A stretch of DNA of 64,000 nucleotides from positions 105 through 64,104 of the forward strand of contig JAEEUA010000001.1 of NCBI GenBank assembly GCA_016286775.1. The letters are read 5' to 3'. The DNA is from Bacteroidales bacterium (GTDB taxonomy: Bacteria; Bacteroidota; Bacteroidia; Bacteroidales; UBA3663). The notes under the pieces are model-generated. The model was not told the DNA's origin, ran no database searches, and was given only the letters and a program-made list of their open reading frames with translations. A program made the translations under genes and the position numbers. Below are positions 36,362 through 58,332 of the stretch, piece after piece; the stretch's first letter is position 1, and the number at the start of each line of letters is the position of its first letter.

Positions 36362-36376
36362 TATTGTCGGGGTTAT

Positions 36377-36451
36377 GCAGCCAAGGATGGCTGCGACGGG
36401 GACGCTGGGGGTCCTTTTATCAGAAGCTGAGCAGCCAAGGATGGCTGCGAC
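36377..36451 (+). repeat. Two copies of the GCAGCCA-loop-TGGCTGC hairpin element
   Basis: GCAGCCAAGGATGGCTGCGAC occurs at 36377-36397 and 36431-36451. Each copy is followed by (G/T)(G/T)GGACGCT. Confidence 0.75.
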
Positions 36452-36728
36452 TTGGACGCTTGGCGGTTTTTTTTGCTATTTGGGGTGCAAAGATAGTGGA
36501 TTTTTGGATATTTTCCAAAAAAAATAAAGAAATTCTGCTTTTTGTGGTCCTCTTTTTGAGGCGATTAGGTGCGAATCTCTGTAAGCGCGTGCTAAACATG
36601 GCGCTACAGGTGCAAGGATGGGGCTATTTTGCTATGTGGCGAAGTGGAAATATGGGTTAATTTGGCAAAAAGAAGGACAATTTGGAAGATTTAACGGGAA
36701 GAAAGGGGGACGGAATGGGATTTTTGCG

Positions 36729-36736
36729 TATATTTG
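36729..36736 (+). promoter_or_regulatory. Candidate -7 box (TATATTTG) for the 36.8-47.8 kb cluster
   Basis: Matches TAnnTTTG, 47 nt upstream of ATG 36783. Confidence 0.35.
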
Positions 36737-36782
36737 CCGACGAATTTGTGTTTGGTTTGACTTTTAGGTCGCGATTTTGCAC

Positions 36783-37496
36783 ATGAGATTGATAAAATGC
36801 TTTCTACTGGCGATGCTGCTGACTGTGCCCGTGCTTACATGGGCGCAGAATGATGCGTTGTCGGGGAAGGACACCATAGTCTCGATGCGGGAACTGCATC
36901 GACTGCATCGGGAGGAGAAGATTGCCCGTGGACCCTTGGGACGACGGGATATGGGGAATGGAAAGACCACTGTACTTTCACTTCGAAGCAACCTGCTCCG
37001 ATGGTTGACATTTACGCCAGATTTAGGTCTGGTGCTGCATTGCTCGCCGAGGGTGGATGTTCAGCTGAATGCGGCATGGACTTCGATGACGATATCAGAC
37101 AGATATCAGAAGAGATATGCCCTGTGGATTGTTTCGCCTGAGGTGAGGTATTATCTGGGTCAGAACCAACGGTATTATCTTGGGATTCAAGGTGAGGTGA
37201 GCCAACGCAATTATCGTCTGCGTGGTCGTGACGAAGGCAAGCAAGGAACCGTCTATGGCGGTGGTGTCGTTGGCGGATACCAGTGGCGCATCGGTCGCCA
37301 TACGAGCCTCGACCTCCATATCGGTGCAGGATTTAATGCAGGCAGGATGAGTCATTATGACAATAATTCGCTTTTTGATGGCCAGAAGCCATCGCGTACC
37401 TTTCTGCGCAAAGAGGATGAACATTGGTTCGGCATCAATCATCTGGGCGTGAGCCTGGTCTGGGACCTTTATGGTCGGAAAGGAGATGGGCGATGA
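36783..37496 (+). CDS. DUF3575-like outer-membrane beta-barrel protein (cluster gene 1)
   Basis: Signal peptide MRLIKCFLLAMLLTVPVLTWAQ. LRSNLLRWLTFTPDLGL...ALWIVSPEVRYYLG...YYLGIQG...GGYQWRIGRHTSLDLHIGAGF follows the DUF3575 strand pattern as I recall it. Confidence 0.6.
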   Translation: MRLIKCFLLAMLLTVPVLTWAQNDALSGKDTIVSMRELHRLHREEKIARGPLGRRDMGNGKTTVLSLRSNLLRWLTFTPDLGLVLHCSPRVDVQLNAAWTSMTISDRYQKRYALWIVSPEVRYYLGQNQRYYLGIQGEVSQRNYRLRGRDEGKQGTVYGGGVVGGYQWRIGRHTSLDLHIGAGFNAGRMSHYDNNSLFDGQKPSRTFLRKEDEHWFGINHLGVSLVWDLYGRKGDGR

Positions 37497-38419
37497 AACG
37501 TACTTGGATGGTTCTGATGCTGGCGACAATGGCTCTGTGGCTGACAGGTTGCCGCATCTTCGATGTTGAGGACGACCTGTATGATATCGACAAGGAGCAG
37601 GCTACGGTGTCACTACAACTGTTCTATGTGGAGCATTCGACTGACCGAGCAGATGTGCTGCCTTCGTCGTATGGCATCCGGATTTATAGCGATAGCGAAC
37701 TCCCGAATCCATCGATCCAGTTCGTGAGCGCAAGGGATGGAAAGTCTTTTACGAATACGTTGAACAGGTCGGTTGACACGCTTTCATACAACGGGTATCT
37801 GCAGCCTGGAAGTTATAAGCTGCTGACGTATAACAATGCCCGAGGCTTCAAGGTGGATGCCACTTCGGCTGAGGTCGAACGGCATGGAACGTCTATCTTG
37901 GCGATGCCAGAGTCATTGTATCTGGGCTCATGGTTGGAACAGTTGACGGGTGGAGAACAGTACAGTACGGATGTGCAAGTGCGGCAACGTACGCGACGGC
38001 TGACCTTCCACGTGGAGCTGGAGATGAGCGATATGCTGACGTACGTGTCGGGCACGGGCAGTTTGAGCAATGTCTGCTACCGGCTTGATATTGCGAAGGA
38101 CTCCATCGATCCAACTTGTCTTGCCACTATGCCACTTGCCTGGCAGGTGGGGACGGTAGCGGCAGGCGACGGAACAAAGACTGTCGAACTGGTCTGCGAG
38201 GCCAATGTGCTGAGCCCCTCGGCGGCTGAATTTGCAACTATGGGGGTGGGGCAAACTTTGACGATGGAGATTCGTCTTGCCGGGCCTTCTGGCGAGAAGA
38301 TGGTTGAGTTTAGCTTTGAGCATGCTTTGGACGAGGCTTATCGACTGGGATATGTGGAGGCTACCGGGGATCTTTGGTGCATTGAGCACTATGAATGGAG
38401 GCGTCGGGTCGGTGTTTAG
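37493..38419 (+). CDS. Lipoprotein, FimB/Mfa2-like (type V pilus anchor-like) (cluster gene 2)
   Basis: ATGA overlap with gene 1. The lipobox is MALWLTGC. PESLYLGSW...VQVRQRTRRLTFHVEL resembles the LYYG...V-x-L-x-R-x-T-x-L-x-V pattern of Mfa2-family proteins. The assignment is weak and motif-level only. Confidence 0.45.
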   Translation: MKRTWMVLMLATMALWLTGCRIFDVEDDLYDIDKEQATVSLQLFYVEHSTDRADVLPSSYGIRIYSDSELPNPSIQFVSARDGKSFTNTLNRSVDTLSYNGYLQPGSYKLLTYNNARGFKVDATSAEVERHGTSILAMPESLYLGSWLEQLTGGEQYSTDVQVRQRTRRLTFHVELEMSDMLTYVSGTGSLSNVCYRLDIAKDSIDPTCLATMPLAWQVGTVAAGDGTKTVELVCEANVLSPSAAEFATMGVGQTLTMEIRLAGPSGEKMVEFSFEHALDEAYRLGYVEATGDLWCIEHYEWRRRVGV

Positions 38420-38420
38420 G

Positions 38421-38612
38421 GCGGCCAAGAACGGCCGCTGCGGGGACGATGAGCAGCCAAAGATGGCTGCTGCTGGGACACTGATAGCCATGGATGGCTG
38501 CGTTTGGACGATGAGCAGCCAAACTTGGCTGCCGCTTGGACACTGATAGCCATGGACGGCTGTGGTTAGGACGATGAGCAGCCAAACTTGGCTGCGGCAG
38601 GGACGGGGCGGT
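38421..38612 (+). repeat. Composite hairpin-repeat array with a period of about 62-63 bp
   Basis: Hairpins start at 38421 (GCGGCC variant), 38453, 38515 and 38578. Secondary AGCCATGGA(T/C)GGCT hairpins lie between them. Whole units are repeated, including the inter-hairpin sequence. Confidence 0.75.
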
Positions 38613-38646
38613 TGTTTTCGGGACGCTATATTATATATTATGTGTG

Positions 38647-39858
38647 ATGTTTGATAGATTTTTGAAGATAATTGCTGTTGTGATGGGCCTGCTGATGGTG
38701 GGCTGGGCTGCTGACGTGCGTGCGCAGTTCCACGAGATGGAATCGCTGCCGTGGGTGCCCGCACGACCAGAGGGGAAGGCAATCAGCAATGGAGGCGGCG
38801 GTGCCGTGTTGGATGAACTGGCGGCTGCCTTGCAACAAAAAGAATATAAACAGGTGGTTGATAAGTACTATCCGCTGGCAATCAGCGGAGGCTTTCAGCG
38901 AAATACGAACCTCTATAACCAGACGCGTCGCGCATTGAGACAGATTCTGCAGACGGATGAGGGTGCGGCCTATTGGAACAAGATGGAAAAACTGTATCAC
39001 GAGCGCTACGCGAATATCGGGAAGGATGAGTATCGATACCGTAATACGCTGGAGACGGCAGCCTGGTGTGATGAACAGCTCGACAATGAGCAGTTGCTAA
39101 TGCTGTCGAAACGGGAAGGAGGCATGGAGGCCTGCTTTGATCGTGCCCATCAGATCTTGAGCCGTCGGCAGGGCAAGGCCGATCCTGTGATTGTGCTGCA
39201 GGGCATGTTTGTTCCGTTGAACCGCGAGCATGCGGCGCATCCTGAGCGTGGAAAGAGCTACGTGAACCGCTATAGTGACATCGTACGTTGGCTGGATGTG
39301 ACGGAAACGTTCATGAAACAAGAGCACGATGCAGACTATCAGACCTATTATAATAAGCAGACCTTGGCGATGGTTCGCGATGAGAGCGAGCGTCAAGTGA
39401 ATGCCGATGCTTCGATAGCTGCGTTTGAGGCACATCGTATTGAACTGCAGGACCAAATGCGCCAACAGGCTGATCTGCTCGATGCCGAGACACGTTCACA
39501 GCGCTTGTATGCCGAGGCGGTGGGGTGCTATCAGAAGAATGACTATGGAGAAGCCTATCAGCGAGTCAACGAAGTGCTGGCTGCCAATGACAAGATGAAG
39601 GAAGCTCATATCCTGAAGTCGAATATCCTGCAACGTGCGGCCAATGCGAGCAACAAGATGGCTGATAAGGTGGCTTTCTGGTGTGCGGCATATGAGGCTG
39701 GACAGGGATATGTGGACCGCAAGACGCAGCGTCATATCATCTCGGCTTTGAAGAGCCATCTGTTTATGACGGGTCTGGCCGGGCAGGTGCATTCGACGCG
39801 CAATCCCTTCAGCATCCGACAGCGGATATGGACTGTTGAGGAGCTGAGGGAGAAGTAG
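38647..39858 (+). CDS. Secreted all-alpha protein with a TPR-like segment, unknown function (cluster gene 3)
   Basis: Signal peptide MFDRFLKIIAVVMGLLMVGWAADVRAQ. Helical composition. AEAVGCYQKNDYGEAYQRVNEVLAANDKMKEAHILKSNIL is TPR-like. Confidence 0.5.
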   Translation: MFDRFLKIIAVVMGLLMVGWAADVRAQFHEMESLPWVPARPEGKAISNGGGGAVLDELAAALQQKEYKQVVDKYYPLAISGGFQRNTNLYNQTRRALRQILQTDEGAAYWNKMEKLYHERYANIGKDEYRYRNTLETAAWCDEQLDNEQLLMLSKREGGMEACFDRAHQILSRRQGKADPVIVLQGMFVPLNREHAAHPERGKSYVNRYSDIVRWLDVTETFMKQEHDADYQTYYNKQTLAMVRDESERQVNADASIAAFEAHRIELQDQMRQQADLLDAETRSQRLYAEAVGCYQKNDYGEAYQRVNEVLAANDKMKEAHILKSNILQRAANASNKMADKVAFWCAAYEAGQGYVDRKTQRHIISALKSHLFMTGLAGQVHSTRNPFSIRQRIWTVEELREK

Positions 39859-39859
39859 G

Positions 39860-40090
39860 GCAGCCAAGCTTGGCTGCGACTTGGACGGAAGGCAGCCATA
39901 CACGGCTGCCGACGGAAACGCGGACATGGACAAAGACGGTCGCTGGCGGAGACACGGAGGGCAGCCAAGCACGGCTGCCGACGGAGACGCGGACTTGGAC
40001 AAGGACGGCTGCTGGCCGAGACGAGGAGGGCAGCCAAACATGGCTGCCGGCGGTGACACTGGAGGCGGACAAGGACGGCTGCTGACGGGG
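39860..40090 (+). repeat. Composite hairpin-repeat array with a 69-bp period
   Basis: One hairpin is at 39860-39877. Then three units begin at 39891, 39960 and 40029 (GGCAGCCA-N6-GGCTGCC followed by GACGGA(A/G)ACGCGGAC(A/T)TGGACAA(A/G)GACGG...). Confidence 0.75.
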
Positions 40091-40104
40091 ATATATAGAC
40101 AGAA

Positions 40105-42129
40105 ATGAGAAGAACAATTGAGATAATAATCATACTGGGGACGCTGCTGTGGGCAGGTCTGGGGGCGCGTGCCCTGGGACAGACGCCCTATCGCAGCGTT
40201 AGCTTGGATCGTGATGGTGTGAGCTGGACGTCTTACCTTACCTGGTGGATGGATCTGGCGGATCTGGCATTGGGAGCACCCAATGTCGGGGTGGATGTGG
40301 ACCTGCGAAATCCTCAGCGAATGTGGACCCAGTCGGTGGCTTTACAGTTCAGGACAGGAGCCGATAGCCAATATAAGCTGTGGAGAGGAGATTACAAGGG
40401 AAGTGTCTTGGACAATTTTGGCGTGCAGGCGCAGTATCGTGTTCACTTCAGTCCCTATAAGCATCCTGAATATCATAAGGGACGCTATTACGTGGGTCCC
40501 TATCTCGAATACCAGACGCTCAAGAAGCATTCGAATGCCGGTGTCGTATTGGGGTATGATTTTCCCGGAGTCAGCTGGGGCAATCGATATTTCCTGGAGT
40601 TTTCGGGTGGAGGAAACATTGGCTATAACCTCGACAAGAAGGGTTTGGTCGATCTGCATTTTGCAGTGGGTTTCCGCACATTGAGTATAGCAGGCAAGTA
40701 TTGGCGGCCCGACGAAATGCAATTTGTGCGCAACAACCTTTCGAACGAGATCGCCCAGAACCGGATTGATTCTCTGTTGGGTGAGATGACTGCTGCTCCG
40801 GTGACGCTGAACGTCAAGAGCGCAGCAGGAGACTCGTTGCTTGCCGAGCCTGTCACGATTGAAGATGTGCGCAGAGCATTCTCGCTGCAGTATAATGACC
40901 CGTATCTGGTGGTGGGTAAACTGGAAGAGATGAAGGAGAACAGTCCTCTGCCCATGACGATGCCCAGCGAATATAACAATGTGCTCTACCGTTTGAGCCT
41001 GCTGCCCAAGGATTACGACAGTGAGGCAGGCGAAGCCACCTATATCATGCCTTTCCGAGTTCGGATTGAAGGCTATGACGAAGCCCTGGCACGCAGGAGC
41101 AGCTTCAATTCGGCTTTACGAGGAGCCTATCAGGAAGCGGGCAAACGACTGCCAGCGCTGCTCCTGAAGCCTGCCAGCATGGATTCGCTGGCCGAGACAG
41201 CCAGCGTCGAGCAGGTGATGAAGCTCTTCGATGGACATTGGAAGAAAGAAACACTGAAGGAGCAGGAGGTTGTTGGCCTCTTTTATCGGCAGGATGGAGA
41301 GTTTCAGCCCATCCTGGCTGAAGATATGAACAAAAAAGGAACCTACGCCATTGCGTTGAAGTTCCATCCGCAGGTGTTCGAGTCGTATGATTCTCTGGTT
41401 ACGCGGTTCACCATCCTTCCTGACATCAGCAACCGAGATCAGGAGATGTACGACCGTTTCCTGGAAGTCTATAACAAACAGACGTTCTATGTGGAGCGTC
41501 CCTGGCGCAACGGCAAGGAGAAGACAGTCACCGAGGATGACGTGATTGCTGCTCTCGATCGGGGAGGCATGACTGGATATACCGAGGATCAGATAGAACT
41601 CCCCGATAGCATCCACTACGGACGCAATGTGGGCACGACAACCTATGGACCGGCCTTGCAGCCGCTGCAGTTCATCTTTGTAGTGGAAGATTCGGTTGGA
41701 ATGCGTCAAGGAACCCGGATGCTGGAAGCCCTGACAGCAGGCGTCGATGCACGACGTGCTACCTGGAACACAACCTATGGGCTTGATGCACATGGACCGC
41801 TTCTGGCTGGCAAATACAAGACCGAGGCAAAGGACGAATTTGATGAGCCGGAGCTGGAGGTGGCCGACCGTGAGGAACTGCTGAGGCAGGTAAGCGAGTA
41901 CCTGGTCAAGATCGATCCTTCGCTTGAAGGATTGAAAATCGAGGACGACTGGGTAGTGAATTATGAATATACGGGGTTGCACGGACTGAAGGCAAATGAT
42001 ACCCATCCTGACGGTACGGTCTGGACGGTACTTCAGTTCAGGTATCGCCTGTTGTATTTGGACGGACGTCCGAGGGTGGCCACGGCTAATGTGGCGTATC
42101 GGATTGCACCGCCGGAGGCGGCTCATTGA
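40105..42129 (+). CDS. Secreted protein with an N-terminal DUF3575-like module and a roughly 470-aa unknown extension (cluster gene 4)
   Basis: The signal peptide IIIILGTLLWAGLGARALGQ is nearly identical to that of gene 5. APNVGVDVDL...QAQYRVHFSPY...YYVGPYLEY...GVVLGYDF...FLEFSGGGNIGY follows the DUF3575-like strand pattern. Confidence 0.5.
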   Translation: MRRTIEIIIILGTLLWAGLGARALGQTPYRSVSLDRDGVSWTSYLTWWMDLADLALGAPNVGVDVDLRNPQRMWTQSVALQFRTGADSQYKLWRGDYKGSVLDNFGVQAQYRVHFSPYKHPEYHKGRYYVGPYLEYQTLKKHSNAGVVLGYDFPGVSWGNRYFLEFSGGGNIGYNLDKKGLVDLHFAVGFRTLSIAGKYWRPDEMQFVRNNLSNEIAQNRIDSLLGEMTAAPVTLNVKSAAGDSLLAEPVTIEDVRRAFSLQYNDPYLVVGKLEEMKENSPLPMTMPSEYNNVLYRLSLLPKDYDSEAGEATYIMPFRVRIEGYDEALARRSSFNSALRGAYQEAGKRLPALLLKPASMDSLAETASVEQVMKLFDGHWKKETLKEQEVVGLFYRQDGEFQPILAEDMNKKGTYAIALKFHPQVFESYDSLVTRFTILPDISNRDQEMYDRFLEVYNKQTFYVERPWRNGKEKTVTEDDVIAALDRGGMTGYTEDQIELPDSIHYGRNVGTTTYGPALQPLQFIFVVEDSVGMRQGTRMLEALTAGVDARRATWNTTYGLDAHGPLLAGKYKTEAKDEFDEPELEVADREELLRQVSEYLVKIDPSLEGLKIEDDWVVNYEYTGLHGLKANDTHPDGTVWTVLQFRYRLLYLDGRPRVATANVAYRIAPPEAAH

Positions 42130-42140
42130 TTGGAGATCGA

Positions 42141-42158
42141 GCAGCCAAACTTGGCTGC
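42141..42158 (+). repeat. Single hairpin element
   Basis: GCAGCCAAACTTGGCTGC, followed by GGACAGGGAC. Confidence 0.65.
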
Positions 42159-42185
42159 GGACAGGGACTTAATTAAAAGACAAGA

Positions 42186-42698
42186 ATGACAAGAACAAAA
42201 TGGATAGGGATACTGATCGGGACTTTGCTGTGGGCAGGTCTGGGGCGTTGTGCACAGGCACAGACTGTGGTGGTGCATAGCAACGCTCTGCTGTGGGCAG
42301 CAAAGTGCGCCAATGTGGGTGTTGATCTGACTGTGAATGACTACCAGAGCATCGGCGTAACTGGCCTTGTGACGATGGGGGACAGCTGGATCAAGAAGAT
42401 GAATGGTTCGGGTTTGCAGCTTGATTACCGGTTCTGGTTCAAGCGCAAGCTGTTTCAGGATTTCTTCTTCGGACCACAGCTGGGACTGTATCACTATCGG
42501 AAGGATGGGGAAGACAGCAGCGTTCAGCGGCATACGGCCTTGACTGCAGGCTTCGTGAGCGGCTATGGCTGGATGATCAACCGACACTGGAACGTGGACG
42601 TAACCATGGGTGCCGGCTATCTCCTCTATGCTGACCCTAACCAACATCATAAATTCGTACCGACTAATCTGGGCGCCAATATATCGTATGTTTTCTAA
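42186..42698 (+). CDS. DUF3575-like outer-membrane beta-barrel protein (cluster gene 5)
   Basis: 170 aa with signal peptide IGILIGTLLWAGLGRCAQAQ. SNALLWAAKCANVGVDL...LQLDYRFWF...FFFGPQLGLYHY...GFVSGYGWMINRHWNVDVTMGAGY...NISYVF (C-terminal Phe). Confidence 0.6.
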   Translation: MTRTKWIGILIGTLLWAGLGRCAQAQTVVVHSNALLWAAKCANVGVDLTVNDYQSIGVTGLVTMGDSWIKKMNGSGLQLDYRFWFKRKLFQDFFFGPQLGLYHYRKDGEDSSVQRHTALTAGFVSGYGWMINRHWNVDVTMGAGYLLYADPNQHHKFVPTNLGANISYVF

Positions 42699-42729
42699 TC
42701 TATCGCATCTACAAGCATGGCGCACAAAG

Positions 42730-45700
42730 ATGGCGCTTGTCGGACTTCTGCTATTAGCAGGAGCAAGATGCTATGCGCAATATGATGCCTTGCCGATGGT
42801 GATCCTGAATGCCGATGGCAAGGACCTCACCGATGAAACAGGTCGCGCGTGGGACCCTGAGGATGGTGTGTGGATGCCTTCATCACATGATCTGAGCGAC
42901 CGAACTGACCTCGAGGTATTTGTCACCAACGAAGTGTGTGCCGACTCGATCGTGGTCTGGAGTCATGAACACAATGCCCGCAACACGAGGCTTTTGCAAG
43001 GCTTCGTAAACGAGTATCGCCAACGCGGCTGGAGACTGCAGCGACAGGGTGAGACCTATAATCTGGCCGACGTGAATGCCATTGCAGAAGACATCTACTA
43101 TCGCTATGGCTATCTGGTCGATTACTGGTGCCGCGAAACGGGCGATACGCGAGGCATCTATTCGGTTGCTCTCGTCCTTCATCCTATGGAGAGCAGCCGC
43201 TTCGAAATGATTGTGCTGAACGAGAAGGTCACGAAGTATGATGGCGATGAACCCTATTGCCCGCTCTACTACAAGAACCGCACCGTGCTCGAGAATGTGA
43301 ACAAGGTGCAGCGCGTGACGACGTTCCATAAGAAGCGCAGACAGGCACAGAGCAGCGGGTCTTGGCTGACTTTCGACGAACATTTCAACTTCCGTGGCCC
43401 TACAGACAGAAGGCTTGTTGTGGAGCGTATCATCGAAGCCTGTATCTTCGGAGAGGACTTTGACCGTCTGGATGCGCGTTTGAAGGGTAATGCTGCAGCC
43501 CAACGATTGAACCAGCAGCTCATGGATCATCATGGCAAAGCACTCGATACCAGCTATGTGCTGGAACCGATGGTTTTCTCGGGCTATCGATTCCAGGCTA
43601 CCAAGCAACGCCAGATGCGCGATGACCTGATGCGCGATACGATGGAGTATTATCGAAAGAAGACTCAGGATATCTTCGAGCAGATGGGGAACTGGGTGGA
43701 GTATCGCGAGGTGGAATCGGACACGACAACGTATCTGGTACCGCGTCCCTTGTGGCGACTGCTGCTTCGCTATCCCAGCTTCGATCAGCTTCGTGGGGAA
43801 CTGCGCAAAGCTGCTCCTCAATTGCCCTTGTCTGTCTCCGATCAGGACACGACAGAAGCGTACACCATCAGTACGCCCACTGAACTCTATCATCGGTTTG
43901 AGGAATATATTGCACGAGGCCACAAGATGGCTGACAAACGTGCCATATCGAGCGAATCAGAACTGGTGGATGGCTATATCCGCCACATCAACCAGATGGA
44001 CATCTACCCCTTGAAGCAGGAAAGTCGTCAGGTACGAATTGAACATCGGCAGGAGGGCGATTCTTCGCGCTATAGGATGCCGATGCAGCTGGTTCCCTAT
44101 GGCAAGGACACTGTGCTGCACTATCGCTGGCAGATGCCTGACCGGCATCGCTTCTACCAGATGCGACACGTGAACTATCTGCATGACTTTGTGCATGCTG
44201 ATACGACACACACAGATGAATGCTCGTGTGAGCGACAGATGCCCCTGCAGTTCCTTTCGGTGTCGGCACGACCTGCCGACTTCGATTGCCCACCTCGTCG
44301 GCATTCGGGCACCGATGAAGTCGTCACCTTCAGACCCCGAGAGCGCGGTGAGGTACAGGATGTGACCTACCAGCTGTCGCTCAGCTTCGACCAGAACAGC
44401 ACCAAGATTGACTTGAAACGCGGCAATAACCAGCAGCAGCTGGATAGCCTGATTGCGAAGGCATACGAGATTACCCATGGCGAGATCGAGAACACCATTC
44501 AGAGCGTGGGCATCGTCGGTGTGTCGTCGCCCGAAGGTCTGCGTTATCATAACCGTCTTATCTCGCATGGACGCAGCCAAGCAATTATCGAAAAACTGCG
44601 TCAGATGGGTGGTGAAGACCTTCGTTTTGCGCGTTTCAACATTGAGAAGGATTCGGTTGCACCATGGAGTGCCGTGGCAGACCTGATCGATGAAATGCAT
44701 CCCGAGTTCCATAGCACTGCAGAACATGTGCGTGAAGTCATCAAGGGCGATGACCCCGAGAATACAACCCAACAACAGAAACGTCTGGGCTATTCGAATG
44801 GTGCCGATCCAATCATCGCCGAAGCGTTGGAGAAGCTGCGTCTGGCACAGGTTACGTATTCGTACAAGGCTCTACGTGAGACTCCGAGCGAGAAGATTCT
44901 GAATTTCTATCGAGACAGGTATGATGCTTCGCGCTGGCCATCGTATTATTTCTATGTGCTGCTTCGTTCAGATCAGTTGACACAAGAAGAAAAACTTGAA
45001 CTGGCCCAGCGGCTGCTCACAATCAAGGCATCAGATGTACGCCGATATGGCCGCGATATGCATCCGCATGACAGCTATGGACTGGTTCTGCCATACGCCG
45101 CCAACCTGTTGGCAGCTGAGGCAATTTCGGAAGGAAATTATGACCGTTCGATTTTGGCTCCGTTCATCAATACCCAGTATTTCCAGGGCAATCTGCCCTG
45201 CTATATCGAGAATGACCCGGACACACCCGTCAAGTTCATCAACCTGGATGTGATACTTTACAACCAGGTGCTGATGCTGAGTGGCATTGGGACGCCCGAG
45301 GCCATCCAAGAGGCTCATGAACTAGCAGATATACTGGAGAATACGCCTACGATGTCGGGTCTTTTCCACGACACTTATCGCCCAGAACTATTGGAGATGC
45401 TGCTCAACAGCCAGAGCGGCCGGTTCGTGCTGGATGACGAGAATGCAGAAATTATTCGCAATACGAACATCTGCAATTTCTTTGTTGTTAACATGGCGCT
45501 TATTCACCAGGCCGTGGATGGAGAACTGCTTGACATTGCAGCCAATGGAGAAGCGCTTGAACTAATGCAGCAGTGCTGTGACAGCCTGATGTCCCTTCAG
45601 CGACAGATGAATGACCAGCCGGCAGCACTCTACTTTACAGCTGTCACCGAGGCATGGGCATCTGAGGCCGGCATCTATACGAACAGGGACGAGCATTATG

Positions 45701-45888
45701 ACCGTGCCGTGGCGGCCTTATCGCAACTCTTCGGCAAGCAGGGCGATCCGGCTTATCTGGAACGTGTACAGGGTGATAGTTACGTGCGAGGCATCTATCG
45801 TGATGCCAAGGCGATACGAGAAGGAATGGACCTCTATCTGGAGGCTGTGGAACAATATATAAAACTACGGACACATGAGGAGGAATAG
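42730..45888 (+). CDS. Large secreted protein (1052 aa) with an embedded OmpA-like 'SPEG' segment (cluster gene 6)
   Basis: ATG 42730 gives the signal peptide MALVGLLLLAGARCYAQ. In the mid-region, LSLSFDQNSTKIDL...QLDSLI...IQSVGIVGVSSPEGLRYHNRLISHGRSQAIIEKL resembles the F-x-x-NS...I-x-I-x-G-x-ASPEG-x4-N-x2-LS-x2-R module seen with DUF3575 proteins. Confidence 0.55.
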   Translation: MALVGLLLLAGARCYAQYDALPMVILNADGKDLTDETGRAWDPEDGVWMPSSHDLSDRTDLEVFVTNEVCADSIVVWSHEHNARNTRLLQGFVNEYRQRGWRLQRQGETYNLADVNAIAEDIYYRYGYLVDYWCRETGDTRGIYSVALVLHPMESSRFEMIVLNEKVTKYDGDEPYCPLYYKNRTVLENVNKVQRVTTFHKKRRQAQSSGSWLTFDEHFNFRGPTDRRLVVERIIEACIFGEDFDRLDARLKGNAAAQRLNQQLMDHHGKALDTSYVLEPMVFSGYRFQATKQRQMRDDLMRDTMEYYRKKTQDIFEQMGNWVEYREVESDTTTYLVPRPLWRLLLRYPSFDQLRGELRKAAPQLPLSVSDQDTTEAYTISTPTELYHRFEEYIARGHKMADKRAISSESELVDGYIRHINQMDIYPLKQESRQVRIEHRQEGDSSRYRMPMQLVPYGKDTVLHYRWQMPDRHRFYQMRHVNYLHDFVHADTTHTDECSCERQMPLQFLSVSARPADFDCPPRRHSGTDEVVTFRPRERGEVQDVTYQLSLSFDQNSTKIDLKRGNNQQQLDSLIAKAYEITHGEIENTIQSVGIVGVSSPEGLRYHNRLISHGRSQAIIEKLRQMGGEDLRFARFNIEKDSVAPWSAVADLIDEMHPEFHSTAEHVREVIKGDDPENTTQQQKRLGYSNGADPIIAEALEKLRLAQVTYSYKALRETPSEKILNFYRDRYDASRWPSYYFYVLLRSDQLTQEEKLELAQRLLTIKASDVRRYGRDMHPHDSYGLVLPYAANLLAAEAISEGNYDRSILAPFINTQYFQGNLPCYIENDPDTPVKFINLDVILYNQVLMLSGIGTPEAIQEAHELADILENTPTMSGLFHDTYRPELLEMLLNSQSGRFVLDDENAEIIRNTNICNFFVVNMALIHQAVDGELLDIAANGEALELMQQCCDSLMSLQRQMNDQPAALYFTAVTEAWASEAGIYTNRDEHYDRAVAALSQLFGKQGDPAYLERVQGDSYVRGIYRDAKAIREGMDLYLEAVEQYIKLRTHEEE

Positions 45889-47776: not shown

Positions 47777-47778
47777 GG

Positions 47779-47829
47779 GTGACCAAACTTGGCTGCGGGA
47801 GGAAAGTCTTTGCGGCCAATTACGGCCGC
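47779..47829 (+). repeat. Two hairpin elements (one degenerate, one GCGGCC variant)
   Basis: GTGACCAAACTTGGCTGC at 47779-47796 and GCGGCCAATTACGGCCGC at 47812-47829, followed by GGCGAAGACGCT. Confidence 0.55.
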
Positions 47830-47876
47830 GGCGAAGACGCTTGCAGTCGGGAACCGGAGTGATGGGGGAGAGAAAG

Positions 47877-48992: not shown

Positions 48993-49012
48993 GGGAGAGG
49001 GTGGGGAAGAAG

Positions 49013-49153
49013 GCGGCCAAAGATGGCCGCTGCTGAACGTTGCCGAATGAGGAAGAGCGGCCAAAGATGGCCGCTACAAAGACGCTGGAGAAGCCAAAGT
49101 TGGCAGGCGCGGGGCGTCACTGAATGGGGAAGAAGGCGACCAAAGATGGCCGC
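49013..49153 (+). repeat. Array of GCGGCCAAAGATGGCCGC-variant hairpins
   Basis: Copies at 49013-49030, 49057-49074, 49091-49107 (degenerate) and 49136-49153. Confidence 0.7.
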
Positions 49154-49253
49154 TACAATGAACGAGGAGCGGCGGAGAACGGCTATTGCCCAATTGCTAA
49201 GAGGGGTCAATCGAAGCCGATGGCATGAATTGGAGGAGGTGTGAGGACAGAGG

Positions 49254-49664
49254 TTAGGGGGTGGTGAGATAGGGGGCAAAGGTGGAGTAGATTTCGTCTC
49301 CACGGGTGAGTGTGCCGTTGACGACGCAGACGCAATCGACCTGTGCTTTGATACACTGGACACCATCGGATTTGCGGTAGATATCCTGTTCAAAAACATA
49401 ACGGACCCCTTTGCGATAGATGTTGAGGCAGGAAAGAAACTCCTGGCCGCCGCGAAGGGGTGCACGGTAGTTAATAGTGACACGGCTTACCATGACATCA
49501 ATGCCTTGGTTGTGAAGCTCCTCGAAGCTGATGCCAACGCTTTGGATGAACTCATGACGGGTAACCTCGAGGTAATGCTGGTAGTTGGCATTGTTGACAA
49601 CTCCCTGGATGTCGCATTCGTAGTCACGCGTCTTCAATTCGAGCTTGTAGGTATAATCTTTCAT
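49254..49664 (-). CDS. Acyl-CoA thioesterase, 4HBT/YbgC family
   Basis: YECDIQGVVNNANYQHYLEVTRHEFI is the hotdog-fold catalytic region. 136 aa from MKDYTYK. ATGA overlap with nhaC. Confidence 0.75.
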   Translation of the reverse strand: MKDYTYKLELKTRDYECDIQGVVNNANYQHYLEVTRHEFIQSVGISFEELHNQGIDVMVSRVTINYRAPLRGGQEFLSCLNIYRKGVRYVFEQDIYRKSDGVQCIKAQVDCVCVVNGTLTRGDEIYSTFAPYLTTP

Positions 49665-50941: not shown

Positions 50942-50965
50942 AGAGATGGACGATGGGTTCGGGAT

Positions 50966-51181
50966 GCAGCCATGAACGGCTGCTGCGGGGACACGTGAGG
51001 GTGGCCAAGGATTGCGCTGGGCAGCCAAGCATGGCTGCGACAGATACGCTTGCGGGGTGGCCTAGGGGTACGCTGGGCAGCCAAGCATGGCTGAGACGGG
51101 GGCGCTTGCGGGGTGAGCCAGGGGTGCGCTGGGCAGTCAAATATGGCTGAGACGGGGACGCTTGCGGGGTGGAACTTGGGT
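50966..51181 (+). repeat. Hairpin-repeat array with a 56-bp period
   Basis: Hairpins start at 50966, 51021, 51077 (degenerate) and 51133 (degenerate). The units read GCTGGGCAGCCAAGCATGGCTG(C/A)GAC...ACGCTTGCGGGGTG... Confidence 0.75.
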
Positions 51182-51411
51182 GCAAATATATGTATTTTAT
51201 TTTAAAAGTGATAGGATATGGATTGATTTTTGAAAAATAACACAAAAAATCGTTTTATTTCTGGGCAATTGTCACATTTGAGATACTTTCGCGTGCCTAT
51301 AAGTATGGATAAATGACATTTTCATTTGACTAAAAAAGAAATAGAGAAATAAAATCAGTAATTTTTTAGTAAAAAAGTGTTGATTGATTTGGTAAATTCA
51401 TAATTTATAGA

Positions 51412-51419
51412 TAAATTTG
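51412..51419 (+). promoter_or_regulatory. Candidate -7 box (TAAATTTG) upstream of wza
   Basis: Matches TAnnTTTG, 31 nt upstream of ATG 51450, after an AT-rich region of about 200 bp. Confidence 0.35.
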
Positions 51420-51449
51420 CGGCGATTTTGGCAATTAGCAAATAATTAT

Positions 51450-52268: not shown

Positions 52269-54727
52269 TGGCTAATCAAATTCCTACCGTTCCTCAGCAG
52301 CCAGTTACACAACCTGCAGTTGCTCCCGTAGAGAACGAAGATTCGGAACTTTCTCTTACCGAACTTTGGTATCTTTGCATTGGACGTTGGCCATGGTTTG
52401 TCCTTAGTGTATTGTTGTGTATGGGAATTGCAACCTTGAAATTGTTGCGTACCCAAAAGACCTATACACAGCATACCGACGTCATGATCAAGTCGGATTC
52501 GCGTGACTATAGTGGCGGCACCATGGGCGACTTTGCTGATCTTGGACTTTTCCAGAGCAATAGTAATGTGAACAACGAGCTCATTGCCATGATGTCGCCT
52601 GCCTTGTCGTTGGAGGTGGTGAATGAGATGGAGCTCAACATCATGTACAGCGAACCTGGATTCTTCAAGGACAGAACCCTTTATGGCCAGACACTCCCAG
52701 TGAAGGTGATTTTCTGTGACGTTGAAAACGAAGGCTATGCACAATTCCGTATTGACCTTAAGGAAGATGGCAACTATGTGCTCAGTAAATTCGACGATGG
52801 TTTTCTCGATGATGAAGTGAAGAAGACAACCATTGAAGGTACGCTTTCCCAGGATACTATTCAGAGCCCAGTAGGACGACTGGTGGTGATGAATGGTATC
52901 GGTTATGGATCTTCGGTGGGCGACAGGATTATCGATGTCGTTCATATTCCCGCTTCGAATGCAGCTGGAGTAGTGCAAGGCAATCTCAGTGCACAAGTGA
53001 CTAACAAGCAGGCCACAGTCATCACCTTGTCCTATGTCGATGTGAACCGTTTCCGTGCAGCAGATGTCTTGAGTACCCTCATATCCTGCTATAACAGAAA
53101 TTGGGTGAATGACAAGAACCAGATAGCTACAAGTACATCGCAGTTCATCAATGAACGTCTGAAGGTCATTGAGGAAGAATTGGGTCATGTGGATACGGAC
53201 ATCTCTAAGTACCAGTCACAGAACCTTATCACTGATGTTAAGGCTGCCAACCAGATGTATATGGCCCAAGCTAATCAGGCTTCCCAGCATGCTGTACAAC
53301 TGAATAACCAGTTGTATATGGCCAGGTATCTGCGCGATTATATAAGCAGTGATGCCAACAAGTACCAGTTGCTTCCTGCTAACAGTGGCGTGGAGGATCG
53401 CACCATTGAAAGTCTGATTAGTTCCTATAATGCCAAACAGTTGCAGCGCAATAGTCTTGTAGCTAACTCGAGCGTCAAAAATCCAGTTGTGCTCGATCTT
53501 GACAAGGAACTGACTGAGATGCGCAACAACCTTCTTCGAAGCATCGACAATCAGATTACAGCGCTCAACACACAGATCAGATCTTCTCGTCAAACTGAGG
53601 CTCAGAGTAATGCCCAAATGGCATCGAATCCTACACGTCAGAAGTATCTGCTTTCTGTTGAACGTCAGCAGAAGGTGAAGGAGCAGCTTTACCTCTACCT
53701 GCTTGAGAAACGTGAGGAGAACGAGCTTTCACAGGCATTTACTGCTTATAATACGCGCGTGATTACTCCTCCTATGGGTAGCAAGAATCCAACTGGTCCA
53801 CGCAGCAAGATGATCTTGCTCATGGCTTTCCTGATTGGTCTTGCCTTGCCGCTTGCCTATATCTATCTGCGCGAAACCATGACTACTGTTGTTCGTGGAC
53901 GCAAGGATATCGATAACATGAAAACTCCGTTTATTGGAGAGTTGCCACAAGGAATTGCAGCAACGGGCAATAAGCGTGAGCGTATGGCGGCACGTCACCA
54001 GTTTGTTGTGAAGCCTGATTCGCGCAACCTTGAGAACGAAGCATTCCGCATCTTGCGTACGAATCTGGAGTTTGTTGCAGGTAAGGAGTCTGCAAACCCA
54101 GCAAAGACGATTCTTGTTACGTCGATGAATCCTGGTTCGGGTAAGACGTATGTCAGCACGAATCTGGGTGCCACCTATGCAATTGCTGGCCAGAAGACAT
54201 TGGTTATGGACCTTGATATTCGCAAGAGTTCTGCCAGCCGTTATATTGGTCGTCCTAAAGAAGGTATTACCAGCATCTTGAATGGTAGTGTCCAGGATTG
54301 GCATTCTTTGGTTGTTCGCGTTCAAGATCGTCCTAATCTTGACTTCTTGCCAACAGGACGTATCGCACCCAATCCAGCAGAATTGCTGCAGGGTGATGCC
54401 TTGAAGAATTTGATTGAGGAAGCTCGTAAGGAATATGATATCATCATCTTTGACTGTCCTCCTTTCAATCTTGTGGCCGATACTACTCTTATTGGCAAAT
54501 ATGCTGACCTTTCGCTCTTTGTGATTCGCTGTGGTGTATTCCAGCGTGCACTAAAGAAGAATGTGGATCAGCTTTATGCTGAGAACAAGTTCAATCGTTT
54601 GAACATCTTGCTTAATGGTTCCGAGGCTGCTACCAGCAAGTATGGTTATAACCGCTATGGCTATGGTTATGGCTATGGTTACGGCTATGGCTATGGTAGC
54701 TATTACGCTACGGATAAAAAGAGATAA
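52268..54727 (+). CDS. wzc: Polysaccharide co-polymerase / BY-kinase (Wzc/GumC-type) with a Tyr-Gly repeat tail
   Basis: The ATG overlaps the wza stop by 1 nt. Walker A is SMNPGSGKTYVSTNLG, A' is LVMDLDIRK and B is IIIFDCPP. The tail is KYGYNRYGYGYGYGYGYGYGSYYATDKKR. Confidence 0.85.
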   Translation: MANQIPTVPQQPVTQPAVAPVENEDSELSLTELWYLCIGRWPWFVLSVLLCMGIATLKLLRTQKTYTQHTDVMIKSDSRDYSGGTMGDFADLGLFQSNSNVNNELIAMMSPALSLEVVNEMELNIMYSEPGFFKDRTLYGQTLPVKVIFCDVENEGYAQFRIDLKEDGNYVLSKFDDGFLDDEVKKTTIEGTLSQDTIQSPVGRLVVMNGIGYGSSVGDRIIDVVHIPASNAAGVVQGNLSAQVTNKQATVITLSYVDVNRFRAADVLSTLISCYNRNWVNDKNQIATSTSQFINERLKVIEEELGHVDTDISKYQSQNLITDVKAANQMYMAQANQASQHAVQLNNQLYMARYLRDYISSDANKYQLLPANSGVEDRTIESLISSYNAKQLQRNSLVANSSVKNPVVLDLDKELTEMRNNLLRSIDNQITALNTQIRSSRQTEAQSNAQMASNPTRQKYLLSVERQQKVKEQLYLYLLEKREENELSQAFTAYNTRVITPPMGSKNPTGPRSKMILLMAFLIGLALPLAYIYLRETMTTVVRGRKDIDNMKTPFIGELPQGIAATGNKRERMAARHQFVVKPDSRNLENEAFRILRTNLEFVAGKESANPAKTILVTSMNPGSGKTYVSTNLGATYAIAGQKTLVMDLDIRKSSASRYIGRPKEGITSILNGSVQDWHSLVVRVQDRPNLDFLPTGRIAPNPAELLQGDALKNLIEEARKEYDIIIFDCPPFNLVADTTLIGKYADLSLFVIRCGVFQRALKKNVDQLYAENKFNRLNILLNGSEAATSKYGYNRYGYGYGYGYGYGYGSYYATDKKR

Positions 54728-54749
54728 GCAGATTTGATTCTATAAAAAA

Positions 54750-54780
54750 TCCCGTCGCTTTGTTGCGGCGGGATTTTTTT
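54750..54780 (+). terminator. Rho-independent terminator after wzc
   Basis: A 9-bp stem, TCCCGTCGC / GCGGCGGGA (one G-U pair), with a 6-nt loop, followed by T7. Confidence 0.7.
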
Positions 54781-54798
54781 GCAGCCAAACTTGGCTGC
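54781..54798 (+). repeat. Single hairpin element directly after the terminator T-tract
   Basis: GCAGCCAAACTTGGCTGC. Confidence 0.65.
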
Positions 54799-54809
54799 GG
54801 CATTAACCA

Positions 54810-54904
54810 GAGGGCAATCGTGGATGAAGAGGGCAATCATGGATGAAGAGGGCAATTCTGAAAGAAGAGAACAATCATGAAAGATGACGGCGACCATGAA
54901 TGGG
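54810..54904 (+). repeat. Five decaying tandem copies of a 19-bp unit
   Basis: GAGGGCAATCGTGGATGAA / GAGGGCAATCATGGATGAA / GAGGGCAATTCTGAAAGAA / GAGAACAATCATGAAAGAT / GACGGCGACCATGAATGGG. Confidence 0.6.
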
Positions 54905-54921
54905 ATAGGGTCGCTGGTTGG

Positions 54922-55527: not shown

Positions 55528-55549
55528 AGGGAATGGAGTATGGGGAGTA

Positions 55550-56104
55550 TTATTTCGTTTCTTGTTCCTTGTCTTTCTTGATGATGCCATAGAAGAATCC
55601 TGCGATTCCTGCTACGAGGATGATGAGAGCGGGAGTCACACCATAAACGATGAGTGCTGTTGATACGATGGGAATCCAAACATTGCTCCATGTGACTCTT
55701 GCTGTCTTAGCCATCTTGAACACGGGCACAGCGAGGAGAGCCACTACAGCTGGACGAATGCCCATAAAGGCAGCTTCGACCCATCGGTTGTCGCGAAACC
55801 TTGAGAAGATGATGGCGATGAGCAGGATGATGATGAGCGAAGGGAAAACTACGCCGAGCGATGCAATGATTCCCGAGCGTATGCCTCCAACCTTATAGCC
55901 AATGTGCGAGGCCATATTGACCGCGAAAACACCCGGAGTGGCTTGAGAGACAGCCATGATGTCCATGAATTCACTGTGCGACAGCCACTGGTGACGGGTA
56001 ACGACCTGTTGTTCCATGAGTGGAATCATAGCGGCTCCACCACCCAGGGTGAAGCCGCCGATTTTCATGAAGGTTACAAAGAGATCCTTGTTTAGTGATT
56101 GCAT
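55550..56104 (-). CDS. Chromate transporter family protein (short-chain CHR, first half-gene)
   Basis: GGFTLGGGAAMIPLMEQQVV...WLSHSEFMDIMAVSQATPGVFAVN. It pairs with the downstream half-gene. Confidence 0.75.
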   Translation of the reverse strand: MQSLNKDLFVTFMKIGGFTLGGGAAMIPLMEQQVVTRHQWLSHSEFMDIMAVSQATPGVFAVNMASHIGYKVGGIRSGIIASLGVVFPSLIIILLIAIIFSRFRDNRWVEAAFMGIRPAVVALLAVPVFKMAKTARVTWSNVWIPIVSTALIVYGVTPALIILVAGIAGFFYGIIKKDKEQETK

Positions 56105-56123
56105 TCGTCTCTTTTTTTATTAT

Positions 56124-56143
56124 GGCAGCCATTGATGGCTGCC
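56124..56143 (+). repeat. Single hairpin element
   Basis: GGCAGCCATTGATGGCTGCC, followed by GACTTCAACG. Confidence 0.6.
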
Positions 56144-56180
56144 GACTTCAACGTTTTGTGAAGGGTTGGGAGGCGCTGTG

Positions 56181-58268
56181 TCAGCAGACCTTTGAACCGT
56201 TCTTGACCTTATCTTCGTTGGTCACTACGTGGAGTGATCCGTCGAAGTTGACCGCCGACAGTATCATGCCGTTGGAAGCAATATGCTTCATGACCTTGGG
56301 TGCGAAGTTTGCCACGAAAAGCACCTGCTTGCCGACCAGAACCTGTGGATCAGGATAATGCTGAGCAATGCCGGAGAGGATTGTTCGTGGCTGGCCGGTT
56401 CCATCGTCGAGGGTGAATTGAAGCAGTTTGTCACTCTTCTTGACAGGCTTCACTTCGAGGACTGTTGCGACTCGGATATCAAGACGCTCAAAGTCCTCGA
56501 ATGGAATGTTCTCCTTGATTGGTTCGGGACGCCAATTCCATTCGGCTTCAGCCAAAGCAATCTCGTCGTTCTCCTTCTTGATTCGAGCCAGTCGGTCGAG
56601 TTGGGGCTGGATGTCCTTGTCCTCCAGTTTCTCAAAGAGGAGAACGCTTTCGCCAAGCTGATGTCCTTCGGCAAGGAGGTCGGTACGACCAAGCTGTTCC
56701 CACTTGAAGGTCTCCATACCCAGCATCTTGCGAAGCTTCTCGGCAGAGAAGGGCAGAAAGGGTTCGAAGACGATGGCAAGGTTGGCCGAAATCTGAAGGC
56801 TCAGATTGAGAATGGTCTTTACGCGCTCCATATCGGTCTTGGCAATCTTCCAAGGTTCGGTGTCGGCCAGGTACTTGTTGCCGATGCGTGCTAATTCCAT
56901 GGCCTCCTTCTGTGCATCTCGGAACTTGAAATCGTCGAGTAGAGCTTCGACACGTGCCTTCACGTCCTTGAAGTCTGCGAGCGTCTGACGGTCATAATCG
57001 GTGAGTTCGCCGCAGGCAGGCACCTTTCCGTCGAAATATTTCTCGGTGAGCTTCATAGCCCGGTTAATGAAGTTGCCGAAGATGGCCACAAGTTCGTTGT
57101 TGTTGCGAGCCTGGTAGTCACGCCATGTAAAGTCGTTGTCCTTGGTCTCTGGTGCATTGGCTGTCAGGACATAGCGGAGCACATCCTGCTTGCCAGGCAT
57201 ATCGACGAGGTATTCGTTGAGCCAGATTGCCCAGTTGCGGGAAGTGGAGATCTTATCGCCTTCGAGATTGAGAAACTCGTTAGATGGCACATTGTCGGGG
57301 AGGATATAGTCGCCATGCGCCTTGAGCATAGCGGGGAAAACGATGCAGTGGAAAACAATGTTGTCCTTGCCAATGAAGTGAATGAGGCGAGTGTCTTCGT
57401 CCTGCCACCATTTTTGCCATGGTCCATATTTCTCGGGATCGCTATCGCAAAGTTCTTTGGTGTTGGAGATATAGCCGATTGGTGCATCGAACCATACATA
57501 GAGTACCTTGCCTTCTGCACCTTCCACGGGAACAGGTATGCCCCAGTCGAGATCGCGTGTGACAGCACGTGGCTTCAATCCGCCATCGAGCCATGACTTG
57601 CATTGGCCATAGACGTTGGGACGCCATTCCTGATGCTCGTCGAGGATCCACTGGCGGAGCCATTCCTCATGTTCGTTGAGGGGCAGGTACCAGTGCTTGG
57701 TCTGCTTCTTGATGAGGGGATTGCCATTGACGGCATTGTAGGGGTTGATGAGTTCTTCGGGAGAAAGGGTAGCACCGCACTTCTCGCACTGGTCGCCATA
57801 GGCGCCCAAACTGTGGCAACGCGGACATTCGCCACGGATATTGCGGTCGGTAAGGAACTCATGGGTTTCCTCGTCGTAGAATTGTTCGGAAGTCTGCTCG
57901 ATGAATTTTCCTTCGTCGTAAAGCTTACGGAAGAAATCGGCAGCAAACTTGTGATGAATCTTCGAAGTGGTGCGGGAATAAACGTCGAATGATATGCCGA
58001 AGTCGGCAAACGACTGCTTGATCAGGTTGTGGTAGCGATCGACAACCTGCTGTACGGTGATGCCTTCCTTGCGTGCACGGATGGTAACAGGTACGCCGTG
58101 TTCGTCGGAACCACCGATAAACAGAACATCCTCACCTTTGAGGCGAAGGTAGCGGACGTAGATGTCAGCAGGTACATATACACCTGCGAGGTGACCGATA
58201 TGGACGGGGCCGTTGGCGTATGGCAGGGCCGAGGTCACTAAAGTGCGCTTGAAATTCTTTTGTTTCAT
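56181..58268 (-). CDS. metG: Methionine--tRNA ligase
   Basis: [18 protein letters not shown] (HIGH motif), KISTSRN (KMSKS-type), a CPRC...C-x-x-C zinc knuckle, and a C-terminal EMAP-like tRNA-binding domain ([26 protein letters not shown]). ATG 58268. Confidence 0.95.
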
Positions 58269-58302
58269 AGGGTTATGTTGTTTTGAGTTTGGTCGGATAT
58301 GG

Positions 58303-58332
58303 GCAGCCATAGATGGCTGTGACTTGGACGCT
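58303..58332 (+). repeat. Single hairpin element with the conserved tail
   Basis: GCAGCCATAGATGGCTGT followed by GACTTGGACGCT. Confidence 0.6.

Follow-up and report, generated by a model that had tools for sequence, protein, structure and literature searches.

The 64 000-nucleotide stretch of a Bacteroidales bacterium analysed here (GCA_016286775.1, contig JAEEUA010000001.1, positions 105 to 64 104; hereafter the window) carries a short GC-rich hairpin in the intergenic gaps of one of its parts. To judge from sequence comparison, this hairpin represents a previously undescribed family of repetitive extragenic palindromic (REP)-type elements of uncultured ruminant-gut Bacteroidales and their phages, closest to the CGTC-tagged REPs. 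Its forward form lies on the G-rich strand irrespective of the direction of transcription. The explanation that we favour, and to which we give an about even chance, is dispersal of the family by a strand-specific process on single-stranded DNA (ssDNA) at replication forks, followed by tandem amplification and contraction.

The hairpin unit and its arrays in the window

The pattern GCRGCCA-N4-TGGCYGC, searched on both strands with at most one mismatch, matched the window 21 times, all on the plus strand and all within 36377–58320. The chance level from dinucleotide-preserving shuffles was 0.05 ± 0.22 matches. Thirteen copies are exact. Degenerate copies, some of which had been reported in a reading of the window from its sequence only, were recovered by a looser search with two to three mismatches (38484, 38546, 47779, 49090, 51077 and 51133). 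A covariance model (R1), trained on 137 copies from other species only with the window left out, returned 22 copies at E ≤ 0.005, again all on the plus strand and spanning 36371–58336. Its minus-strand matches are only the palindromic cores of the same copies, with far lower scores, and it gave no match in 1–36 kb or beyond 58.4 kb of the window.

Gene calls for the window were taken from public contigs carrying the same sequence (metagenome contig; JGI 3300041004; GCA_016295205.1); elsewhere, an open reading frame (ORF)-based caller was used. The element-bearing gaps are 36362–36782, 38420–38646, 39859–40104, 42130–42185, 47777–47876, 48993–49253, 50942–51449, 54728–54921, 56105–56180 and 58269–58348. 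Occupancy is all-or-none: every one of the 10 gaps at 36.3–58.4 kb holds the element, while none of the 15 gaps at 1–33.5 kb and not the single gap past 58.4 kb does. The sequence-only reading had counted about two dozen copies in 11 intergenic gaps and none in 0.5–36 kb or after 58.4 kb. The abundance, which for the window lies far above expectation from composition, and the empty regions are borne out, whereas the gaps number 10. Most of its start positions also hold, except that the copy placed at 56124 really starts at 56125 and that at 40029 at 40030. The G+C content is 33–47% over 1–34 kb versus 46–58% over 34–64 kb. Tandem Repeats Finder (TRF) detected three regular arrays, at 38433–38604 (period 31/62), 39885–40084 (35/69) and 50999–51172 (56). 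Head-to-tail array periods range from 31 to 69 bp, and hairpin arrays make up about 4–6% of the DNA in regions carrying them.

Alignment of 211–215 copies from the window and related loci revealed a directional unit of about 32–40 nt. On the plus strand of the window it reads RGG-GCAGCCA-WRSA-TGGCTGC-(N)GAC-N3-4-RAC with purine-rich flanks, and on the complementary strand GTYYC..CGTC(A)-GCAGCCA-TCTA/TCCT-TGGCTGC-CCY. The stem, GCAGCCA/TGGCTGC, has 7 bp, and the loop has 4 nt in all copies, not four to six as first described. On the C-rich strand, NGTC stands 0–1 nt from the stem in 160 of the 215 copies (exact CGTC in 98/215) and a CCN tail is present in 102/215 (CCT 51, CCC 36, CCA 15). Only 20/215 copies have an extra outer A-T pair.

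The stems are conserved, with one compensatory variant. Stem positions are 96–100% conserved except for pair 3 and the loop-closing pair. At pair 3, 110 copies have A-U and 23 have G-C, and no more than four are intermediate; in the window the GCGGCCA/TGGCCGC form clusters near dprA (47812, 49013, 49057, 49136), as had been noticed before, and one further copy lies at 38421. At the loop-closing pair, the C-rich strand has A-T in 165 copies and G.T in 49, but the mirror A.C in only six. Six window copies have C instead of T at this pair, which results in A.C on the plus and G.T on the minus strand. The asymmetry hints that one particular strand folds; it is limited to one stem position and could mark a subfamily. 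As ssDNA, either strand folds with a computed −8 to −10 kcal/mol.

The copies of the window are arranged as follows.

36371..36464, plus strand: array of two units (hairpins 36377 and 36431; R1 42.8 and 36.7 bits, sequence, gene calls), in the divergent gap between a GH2-like gene (minus) and a DUF3575 gene (plus), with the first hairpin 15 nt from the GH2 start codon.
38421..38611, plus strand: array of six units (38421, 38453, 38484, 38515, 38546, 38578; TRF 31/62 with 88% matches, R1, sequence), composed of two alternating hairpin subtypes (period 31 nt, dimer unit 62 nt); begins 1 nt past the stop codon of the upstream plus-strand gene.
39860..40082, plus strand: array of four good units (39860, 39892, 39961, 40030) and degenerate half-units (e.g. 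40065; TRF 69 nt × 2.9, R1, sequence), period 35/69 nt; begins 1 nt past a stop codon, and 22 nt lie between its end and the next ATG.
42141..42168, plus strand: single unit (R1 27.3 bits, orthologous-gap comparison) in a 56-nt gap between two plus-strand genes; relatives have 2–6 units there.
47779..47845, plus strand: two units (47779 degenerate, 47812 of the GCGGCCA variant; looser search, R1, alignment) in the convergent gap between the upstream gene (plus) and dprA (minus); begins 2 nt past the stop codon.
49007..49169, plus strand: array of four units (49013, 49057, 49090 degenerate, 49136) with the GCGGCCA/TGGCCGC stem (R1 26.3, 40.6 and 34.1 bits); the first hairpin is 20 nt upstream of the dprA start codon.
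50960..51166, plus strand: array of four units (50966, 51021, 51077, 51133; TRF 56 nt × 3.1, R1, gap comparison) with a 56-nt period, in the divergent gap between NhaC (minus) and wza (plus).
54775..54814, plus strand: single unit (hairpin 54781; R1 31.8 bits) in the convergent wzc/chrA gap, directly after a separate canonical terminator (stem 54755–54771, then a T-run).
56119..56158, plus strand: single unit (R1 24.6 bits on the plus versus 18.3 on the minus strand) between the chrA start (20 nt off) and the metG stop (38 nt off); relatives have 2–3 units.
58297..58336, plus strand: single unit (R1 29.7 bits, alignment) between the metG start and the MBOAT stop; an ATG in the hairpin gives a spurious 14-codon metG extension (ORF 56181–58310).

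The extra metG codons are one example of the artefactual ORFs and N-terminal extensions through arrays that the sequence-only reading had pointed out and that we confirm. The stretch from the 54781 hairpin to the chrA stop codon also contains, at 54809–54900, a 19-bp tandem repeat (AGAGGGCAATCATGAAAGA, 4.8 copies) that is unrelated to the hairpin; the gaps of relatives are much shorter where the window has this repeat.

The forward form lies on the G-rich strand

Orientation was called with the covariance model and not from purine content, because the latter is circular with skew. All 22 model copies of the window are on the plus strand, 12 of them flanked by plus-strand and about 10 by minus-strand genes, and GC skew is positive throughout, for genes on both strands. 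Across 58 related loci (1.3–21 kb each), model hits are confined to a single strand in 56. The two exceptions, L026 and L028, are mutually orthologous; each has its change of orientation at the point where GC skew turns from negative to positive. Of 43 loci, 41 have an orientation that agrees in sign with the GC skew of their coding regions, and in the remaining two the skew is near 0. Of 153 ORFs of at least 900 nt, split 69:84 between the element-forward and the other strand, 93% have a positive skew when it is measured along the former (87% of those on the forward strand and 98% of those on the other). At third codon positions the strand-wide effect is about +0.18 and the coding-strand effect about −0.17. 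Inverted pairs are absent from the 58 loci and the window (approximately 0.5 Mb), save at the skew switch in L026/L028.

Strand-wide skew is usually read as a mark of replication direction: the G-rich strand is the leading strand, identical in sequence to the lagging-strand template. With GC skew as a proxy for replication direction, the polarity would most simply be linked to replication.

Skew and orientation switch together, from minus to plus, at about 1300–2500 of L028 and about 1400–3000 of L026; they also switch together on contig JAFWRO010000021.1, between loci L020 and L004. The switch in L028 was checked as a possible origin or locus of a REP-associated tyrosine transposase (RAYT), and contained neither a DnaA-box cluster nor a transposase. 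Its neighbours are housekeeping genes (dCMP deaminase, S41 peptidase, RecR). The switch points may represent origins or the breakpoints of inversions.

In bacterial interspersed mosaic elements (BIMEs) and REPINs, REPs occur in alternating or inverted orientation, and canonical REP pairs have no net strand polarity. The sequence-only reading had called the present family REP/BIME-like. The first half of this name is apt, as the element is a short, conserved, mostly extragenic hairpin of high density with a one-sided unpaired tag, CGTC-hairpin-CCN on the C-rich strand. The second half fails: the arrays are strictly head-to-tail, apart from the flip of GC skew already described. In common with the REPs of Escherichia coli and Pseudomonas, the family has an intergenic hairpin with a conserved unpaired tetranucleotide at its foot and prefers unidirectional and convergent gaps, but its flanks are RGG and CGTC, not GTAG (GT[AG]G), and inverted pairs as in BIMEs and REPINs are missing.

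REPs have been sorted into GTAG- and CGTC-tagged superfamilies (Di Nocera, De Gregorio & Rocco 2013, PMC3733652). Those with CGTC have a 5′ CGTC/TGTC tag, an 8–9-bp stem beginning with A-T pairs, a 4–5-nt loop and a CCA tail; they mostly form head-to-head dimers, with head-to-tail arrangement ‘negligible’, are in part intragenic, and are present in Bacteroidetes (PMC3733652). They include the Neisseria dRS3/NIME clusters and Rickettsia RPE-4/RPE-6, and the Neisseria and Wolbachia members cluster (PMC3733652). Leading- or lagging-strand polarity is not addressed in that work (PMC3733652). The present family shares with them the tag (as NGTC), the 4-nt loop, the CCN tail (a partial match), copies near gene ends, in-frame intragenic copies, and the lack of a transposase found beside its copies. 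It differs in its 7-bp stem beginning with G-C, in being head-to-tail throughout, and in a second outer tag, GTYYC / RAC, 3–4 nt further out. Unlike the CGTC REPs as published, it follows GC skew strictly and is carried densely by phages. No description of this hairpin family in Bacteroidales was found in the literature searched, including a 2025 REP survey.

Position relative to genes

Sixty-three arrays had both neighbouring genes called: 41 lie in tandem, 17 in convergent and five in divergent gaps. In tandem gaps, genes antisense to the forward (G-rich) form outnumber those in sense 32 to 9, although long ORFs are split 84:69; this excess partly reflects pseudo-replication of orthologous loci. 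At three of the four plus-strand gene ends in the window, arrays begin 1–2 nt past the stop codon, and hairpins end 15–34 nt short of the start codons of minus-strand genes. Across the loci, the hairpin-to-start distance is 14–21 nt in 16 of 37 cases. The arrays seem to take up all space that is not required for coding or translation initiation. In-frame intragenic copies occur in an ORF for a HemN/HemW-like radical-SAM protein, which stays open through three units in L028 (382–483) and, in a second species, five in L026 (3922–4107). The resulting insertions of about 45–75 residues (PSPSQPSMAAS..., VAAKFGCQAS...) are within the domain, which Pfam matches in two pieces.

In the window, 36783–47776 contains seven co-directional genes separated by hairpin arrays only, an apparent operon. 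Two of them encode DUF3575 proteins, one a putative beta-barrel (weak OMP_b-brl match) and four large proteins (308–1052 residues), for which no Pfam match was obtained. A DNA-uptake sequence, considered on account of the adjacent dprA, was rejected: nearly all copies are intergenic, and they are hairpins tagged on one side.

These positions would suit an RNA element, namely a stem-loop between cistrons that shields upstream mRNA from 3′ exonucleases, marks sites of processing or tunes the translation of adjacent genes. Arrays lie inside apparent operons and within the above distances of stop and start codons, the distribution over tandem, convergent and divergent gaps is as reported for other REPs, and the palindromic stem folds in either transcript sense. 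REPs of E. coli, as studied by Higgins, Newbury, Deutscher and colleagues, reportedly stabilise upstream mRNA, and those near stop codons are said to lower translation. However, the orientation of the present family follows the DNA strand and not the transcript, and the one-sided tag cannot be an RNA signal because it is read in both senses. Nor does the element match an Rfam family: the window gave no gathering-level match, and none of three weak, chance-quality matches is the element, the one at 54670–54791 merely running into the first bases of the 54781 unit. A scan of the window for tRNA and tmRNA found none. A function in RNA would account for tolerance and side effects of the copies, but not for their dispersal or polarity, and we regard it as unlikely to be the basis of the family.

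That the elements are intrinsic transcription terminators is hardly tenable, even though they have GC-rich 7-bp stems downstream of many genes. No T-run follows the stems, and the terminator scan reports no element, yet it detects the true terminator at 54755–54780 beside the 54781 unit; the terminator-plus-element layout (54755–54781) is kept in relatives. Further, arrays are found right before start codons and between genes that leave no space for a new promoter, and the stem is identical at hundreds of sites, unlike that of terminators. On the missing T-run and the negative scan of the elements, we rejected this reading.

Relatives, phages and proposed dispersal of the family

We scanned one genome per species for two hairpins 8–38 nt apart and obtained 105 stretches. 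Roughly half come from metagenome-assembled genomes (MAGs) titled Bacteroidales, Prevotellaceae or Paludibacteraceae, with isolate names and contig labels that point to ruminants (sheep, goat, water buffalo, reindeer, red deer, RUG/RGIG series); up to 14–16 stretches originate from one genome. Acidobacteria, Streptomyces and others contribute the rest, as single matches. Nucleotide identity to the window is 74–85% in several orthologous loci, and more relatives were obtained by a metagenome scan with DprA.

Orthologous gaps were recovered for eight of the 10 window gaps and are occupied in all relatives recovered, with 1–6 units each. The changes in arrays consist of whole tandem units gained or lost. 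Loci L117 and L120, which are 99.83% identical, differ by exactly one 66-bp dimer unit in the array orthologous to 42130–42185; between the near-identical contigs L001 and L002 there were no indels. The NhaC/wza gap holds four units in the window versus one degenerate, AT-rich copy in eight relatives. At the orthologous site near the dprA start, GCAGCC..GGCTGC of the relatives corresponds to GCGGCC..GGCCGC in the window, a difference that we read from the alignment as a compensatory A-T to G-C change or conversion. Within the array orthologous to 42130–42185, the identity of L120 and L118 jumps from 86–87% to 99.57%, which suggests a recombination junction in the repeats. Between related strains, for which the sequence-only reading had proposed a comparison of presence and absence, the changes seen are in unit number (e.g. 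66 bp); no locus among the recovered gaps is empty in one relative and occupied in another.

At a contig edge of the Paludibacteraceae MAG RGIG6639 (L070 5346–5777), there are at least 10 near-identical 44-bp units (GCAGCCAAGATTGGCTGC + 26 nt). Six other loci (L012, L014, L042, L044, L065 and L096) have the same 18-nt hairpin core with different, non-GAC flanks. Compared with the tag, the hairpin core may be of greater age or may be recognised more widely.

Could the arrays be pure minisatellites or CRISPR-like repeats that arose locally without dispersal? Their regular spacing of 31–69 bp, the unit gain and loss between close strains and the 44-bp array at the contig end would fit. However, the 18-nt core and its tag are shared by a great many unlinked loci, in phages as well as in several species, single units are common, arrays have only 1–6 units, and the spacers are short and interrelated; we find a local origin scarcely credible. 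A CRISPR array proper was rejected, as the segments between hairpins are 13–50 nt long and themselves repeated, and no cas gene was present among the called genes and scanned proteins.

The low-G+C block of the window (1–33500, 33–47%) has no hairpin. It comprises a polysaccharide-type cluster and genes for an alpha-amylase/CBM26 protein, an OmpA-family protein and a PD-(D/E)XK (PDDEXK_3) protein. The amylase is 58% identical in amino acids to that of a relative, versus about 88% for DprA, and the amylase region of the relative has a higher G+C content and six units downstream. By these comparisons the block is probably of different origin, possibly through later acquisition or replacement. 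The sequence-only reading had offered later acquisition or exclusion of the element from AT-rich accessory DNA; the former is plausible, whereas accessory DNA as such is not excluded, because phage contigs carry the element densely.

A scan of IMG/VR with the same pattern identified six stretches, and three contigs are dense in the element: L112 has about 24 copies (13.4 kb), L113 about 14 (8 kb) and L109 nine (5.7 kb). L112 and L114 (IMGVR_UViG_3300037400_001155) as well as L113 (IMGVR_UViG_3300031867_001982) encode portal, TerL, prohead protease and major head or tail proteins, by which we assign them to tailed phages; L109 is a putative phage contig. In L112 and L113, almost every intergenic gap contains the element, one per 0.5–0.6 kb, at a host-like G+C content. 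All phage copies of a contig are on one strand, the G-rich one. The terminases (TerL) of L112 and L113 are only about 68% identical.

The polarity and the phage copies also bear on another interpretation, by which the family is a polar DNA signal selected by the host. Hairpin and tag would form a putative binding or loading site for a host protein, oriented by replication and exploited by phages, with a role at exposed single strands of the fork, in recombination or repair, or in chromosome organisation; selection rather than transposition would keep the copies. The near-complete agreement of polarity with skew, independent of transcription, would be expected of such a signal. So would the occupation of all orthologous gaps across species at about 78% nucleotide identity, with stems kept while loops and spacers drift, and the retention of copies in nearly every gap of two phages only 68% identical, despite packaging limits. 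The excess of G.T over A.C at the closing pair on the C-rich strand likewise hints at one folding strand, but concerns a single stem position and could mark a subfamily. The polar signals Chi and KOPS (FtsK-orienting polar sequences) are spread through genes, whereas the present copies are intergenic only and absent from 33 kb of the same chromosome. In addition, the number of copies per gap varies freely between one and six, one gap holds only a decayed copy in eight relatives, and we know of no candidate protein. On balance such a signal appears rather unlikely, though a serious alternative to the explanation that we favour. Its more specific form, a selected replication-oriented signal common to a clade of rumen Bacteroidales and their phages and read by a host protein on one strand, is rather improbable, but it would explain gap saturation, conserved stems at orthologous sites and dense carriage by phages.

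The explanation that we favour, dispersal by a strand-specific process on ssDNA at replication forks, draws on known systems. In known cases REP hairpins are recognised and processed as ssDNA by RAYTs, and RAYT subclasses typical of Bacteroidetes exist. In the IS200/IS605 family (IS608, ISDra2), orientation is tied to the replication fork, excision and insertion using the lagging-strand template. The present family resembles these insertion sequences in its hairpin with a short flanking motif and in its orientation bias (41/43 loci, 93% of 153 ORFs, with skew as proxy). It differs from them in that its units of 32–40 nt are tandem and have no ORF, distinct ends or cargo, with no tnpA found nearby.

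Candidate agents of the dispersal would be RAYT/IS200-type HuH/Y1 enzymes that act in trans and read hairpin and tag. After seeding, arrays would grow and shrink by slippage or unequal exchange. Copies would persist where they spare coding sequence, the start region (stopping about 14–21 nt short) or a promoter, and the hairpins would be retained by selection or conversion. In transcripts they would form a stable stem-loop in either orientation and may secondarily affect mRNA decay or translation. Polarity, array dynamics and stem conservation are observations, whereas we infer the enzyme and the act of transposition, the latter because no empty-site insertion was seen.

Several results weigh against this explanation. 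Six-frame ORFs of the window and the fetched loci were searched with an HuH...Y motif expression and with phmmer using E. coli RayT. Neither the window nor any of the phage loci yielded a Y1/HuH gene, and the Bacteroidales loci (about 0.49 Mb) were equally negative, the search covering these loci and not whole genomes; the sole match to RayT was in an unrelated Acidobacteria locus (L018). RAYT genes are usually single-copy and could lie elsewhere in the genome. Instead of an insertion at a truly empty site, we found gaps occupied in every relative (77–88% identity) and tandem unit changes only. If CGTC is the functional tag, equivalent to GTAG, the tagged strand is the C-rich one and thus the leading-strand template, whereas elements of the IS608 type favour the lagging-strand one. 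Strong conservation of the stems at orthologous copies and the dense load of copies in two phages that are only 68% identical agree with selection for a function at least as well as with selfish spread. GC skew is a proxy for replication direction and was taken from contigs, not from a closed genome. Finally, CGTC REPs were reported without a dedicated transposase (PMC3733652).

The near-perfect tracking of skew points to a single-strand, fork-coupled process, and the hairpin with its GAC..RAC tag offers a concrete biochemical substrate. To our knowledge, no mobilising enzyme or mechanism has become known for CGTC-type REPs since their definition in 2013. For the analysis of these genomes it matters that arrays create false ORFs and N-terminal extensions, break assemblies and coincide with a recombination junction. 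Arrays vary between near-identical strains and are a possible typing marker. Their absence may flag recently acquired DNA, and arrays shared between phages and bacteria may help to link phages to their uncultured rumen hosts.

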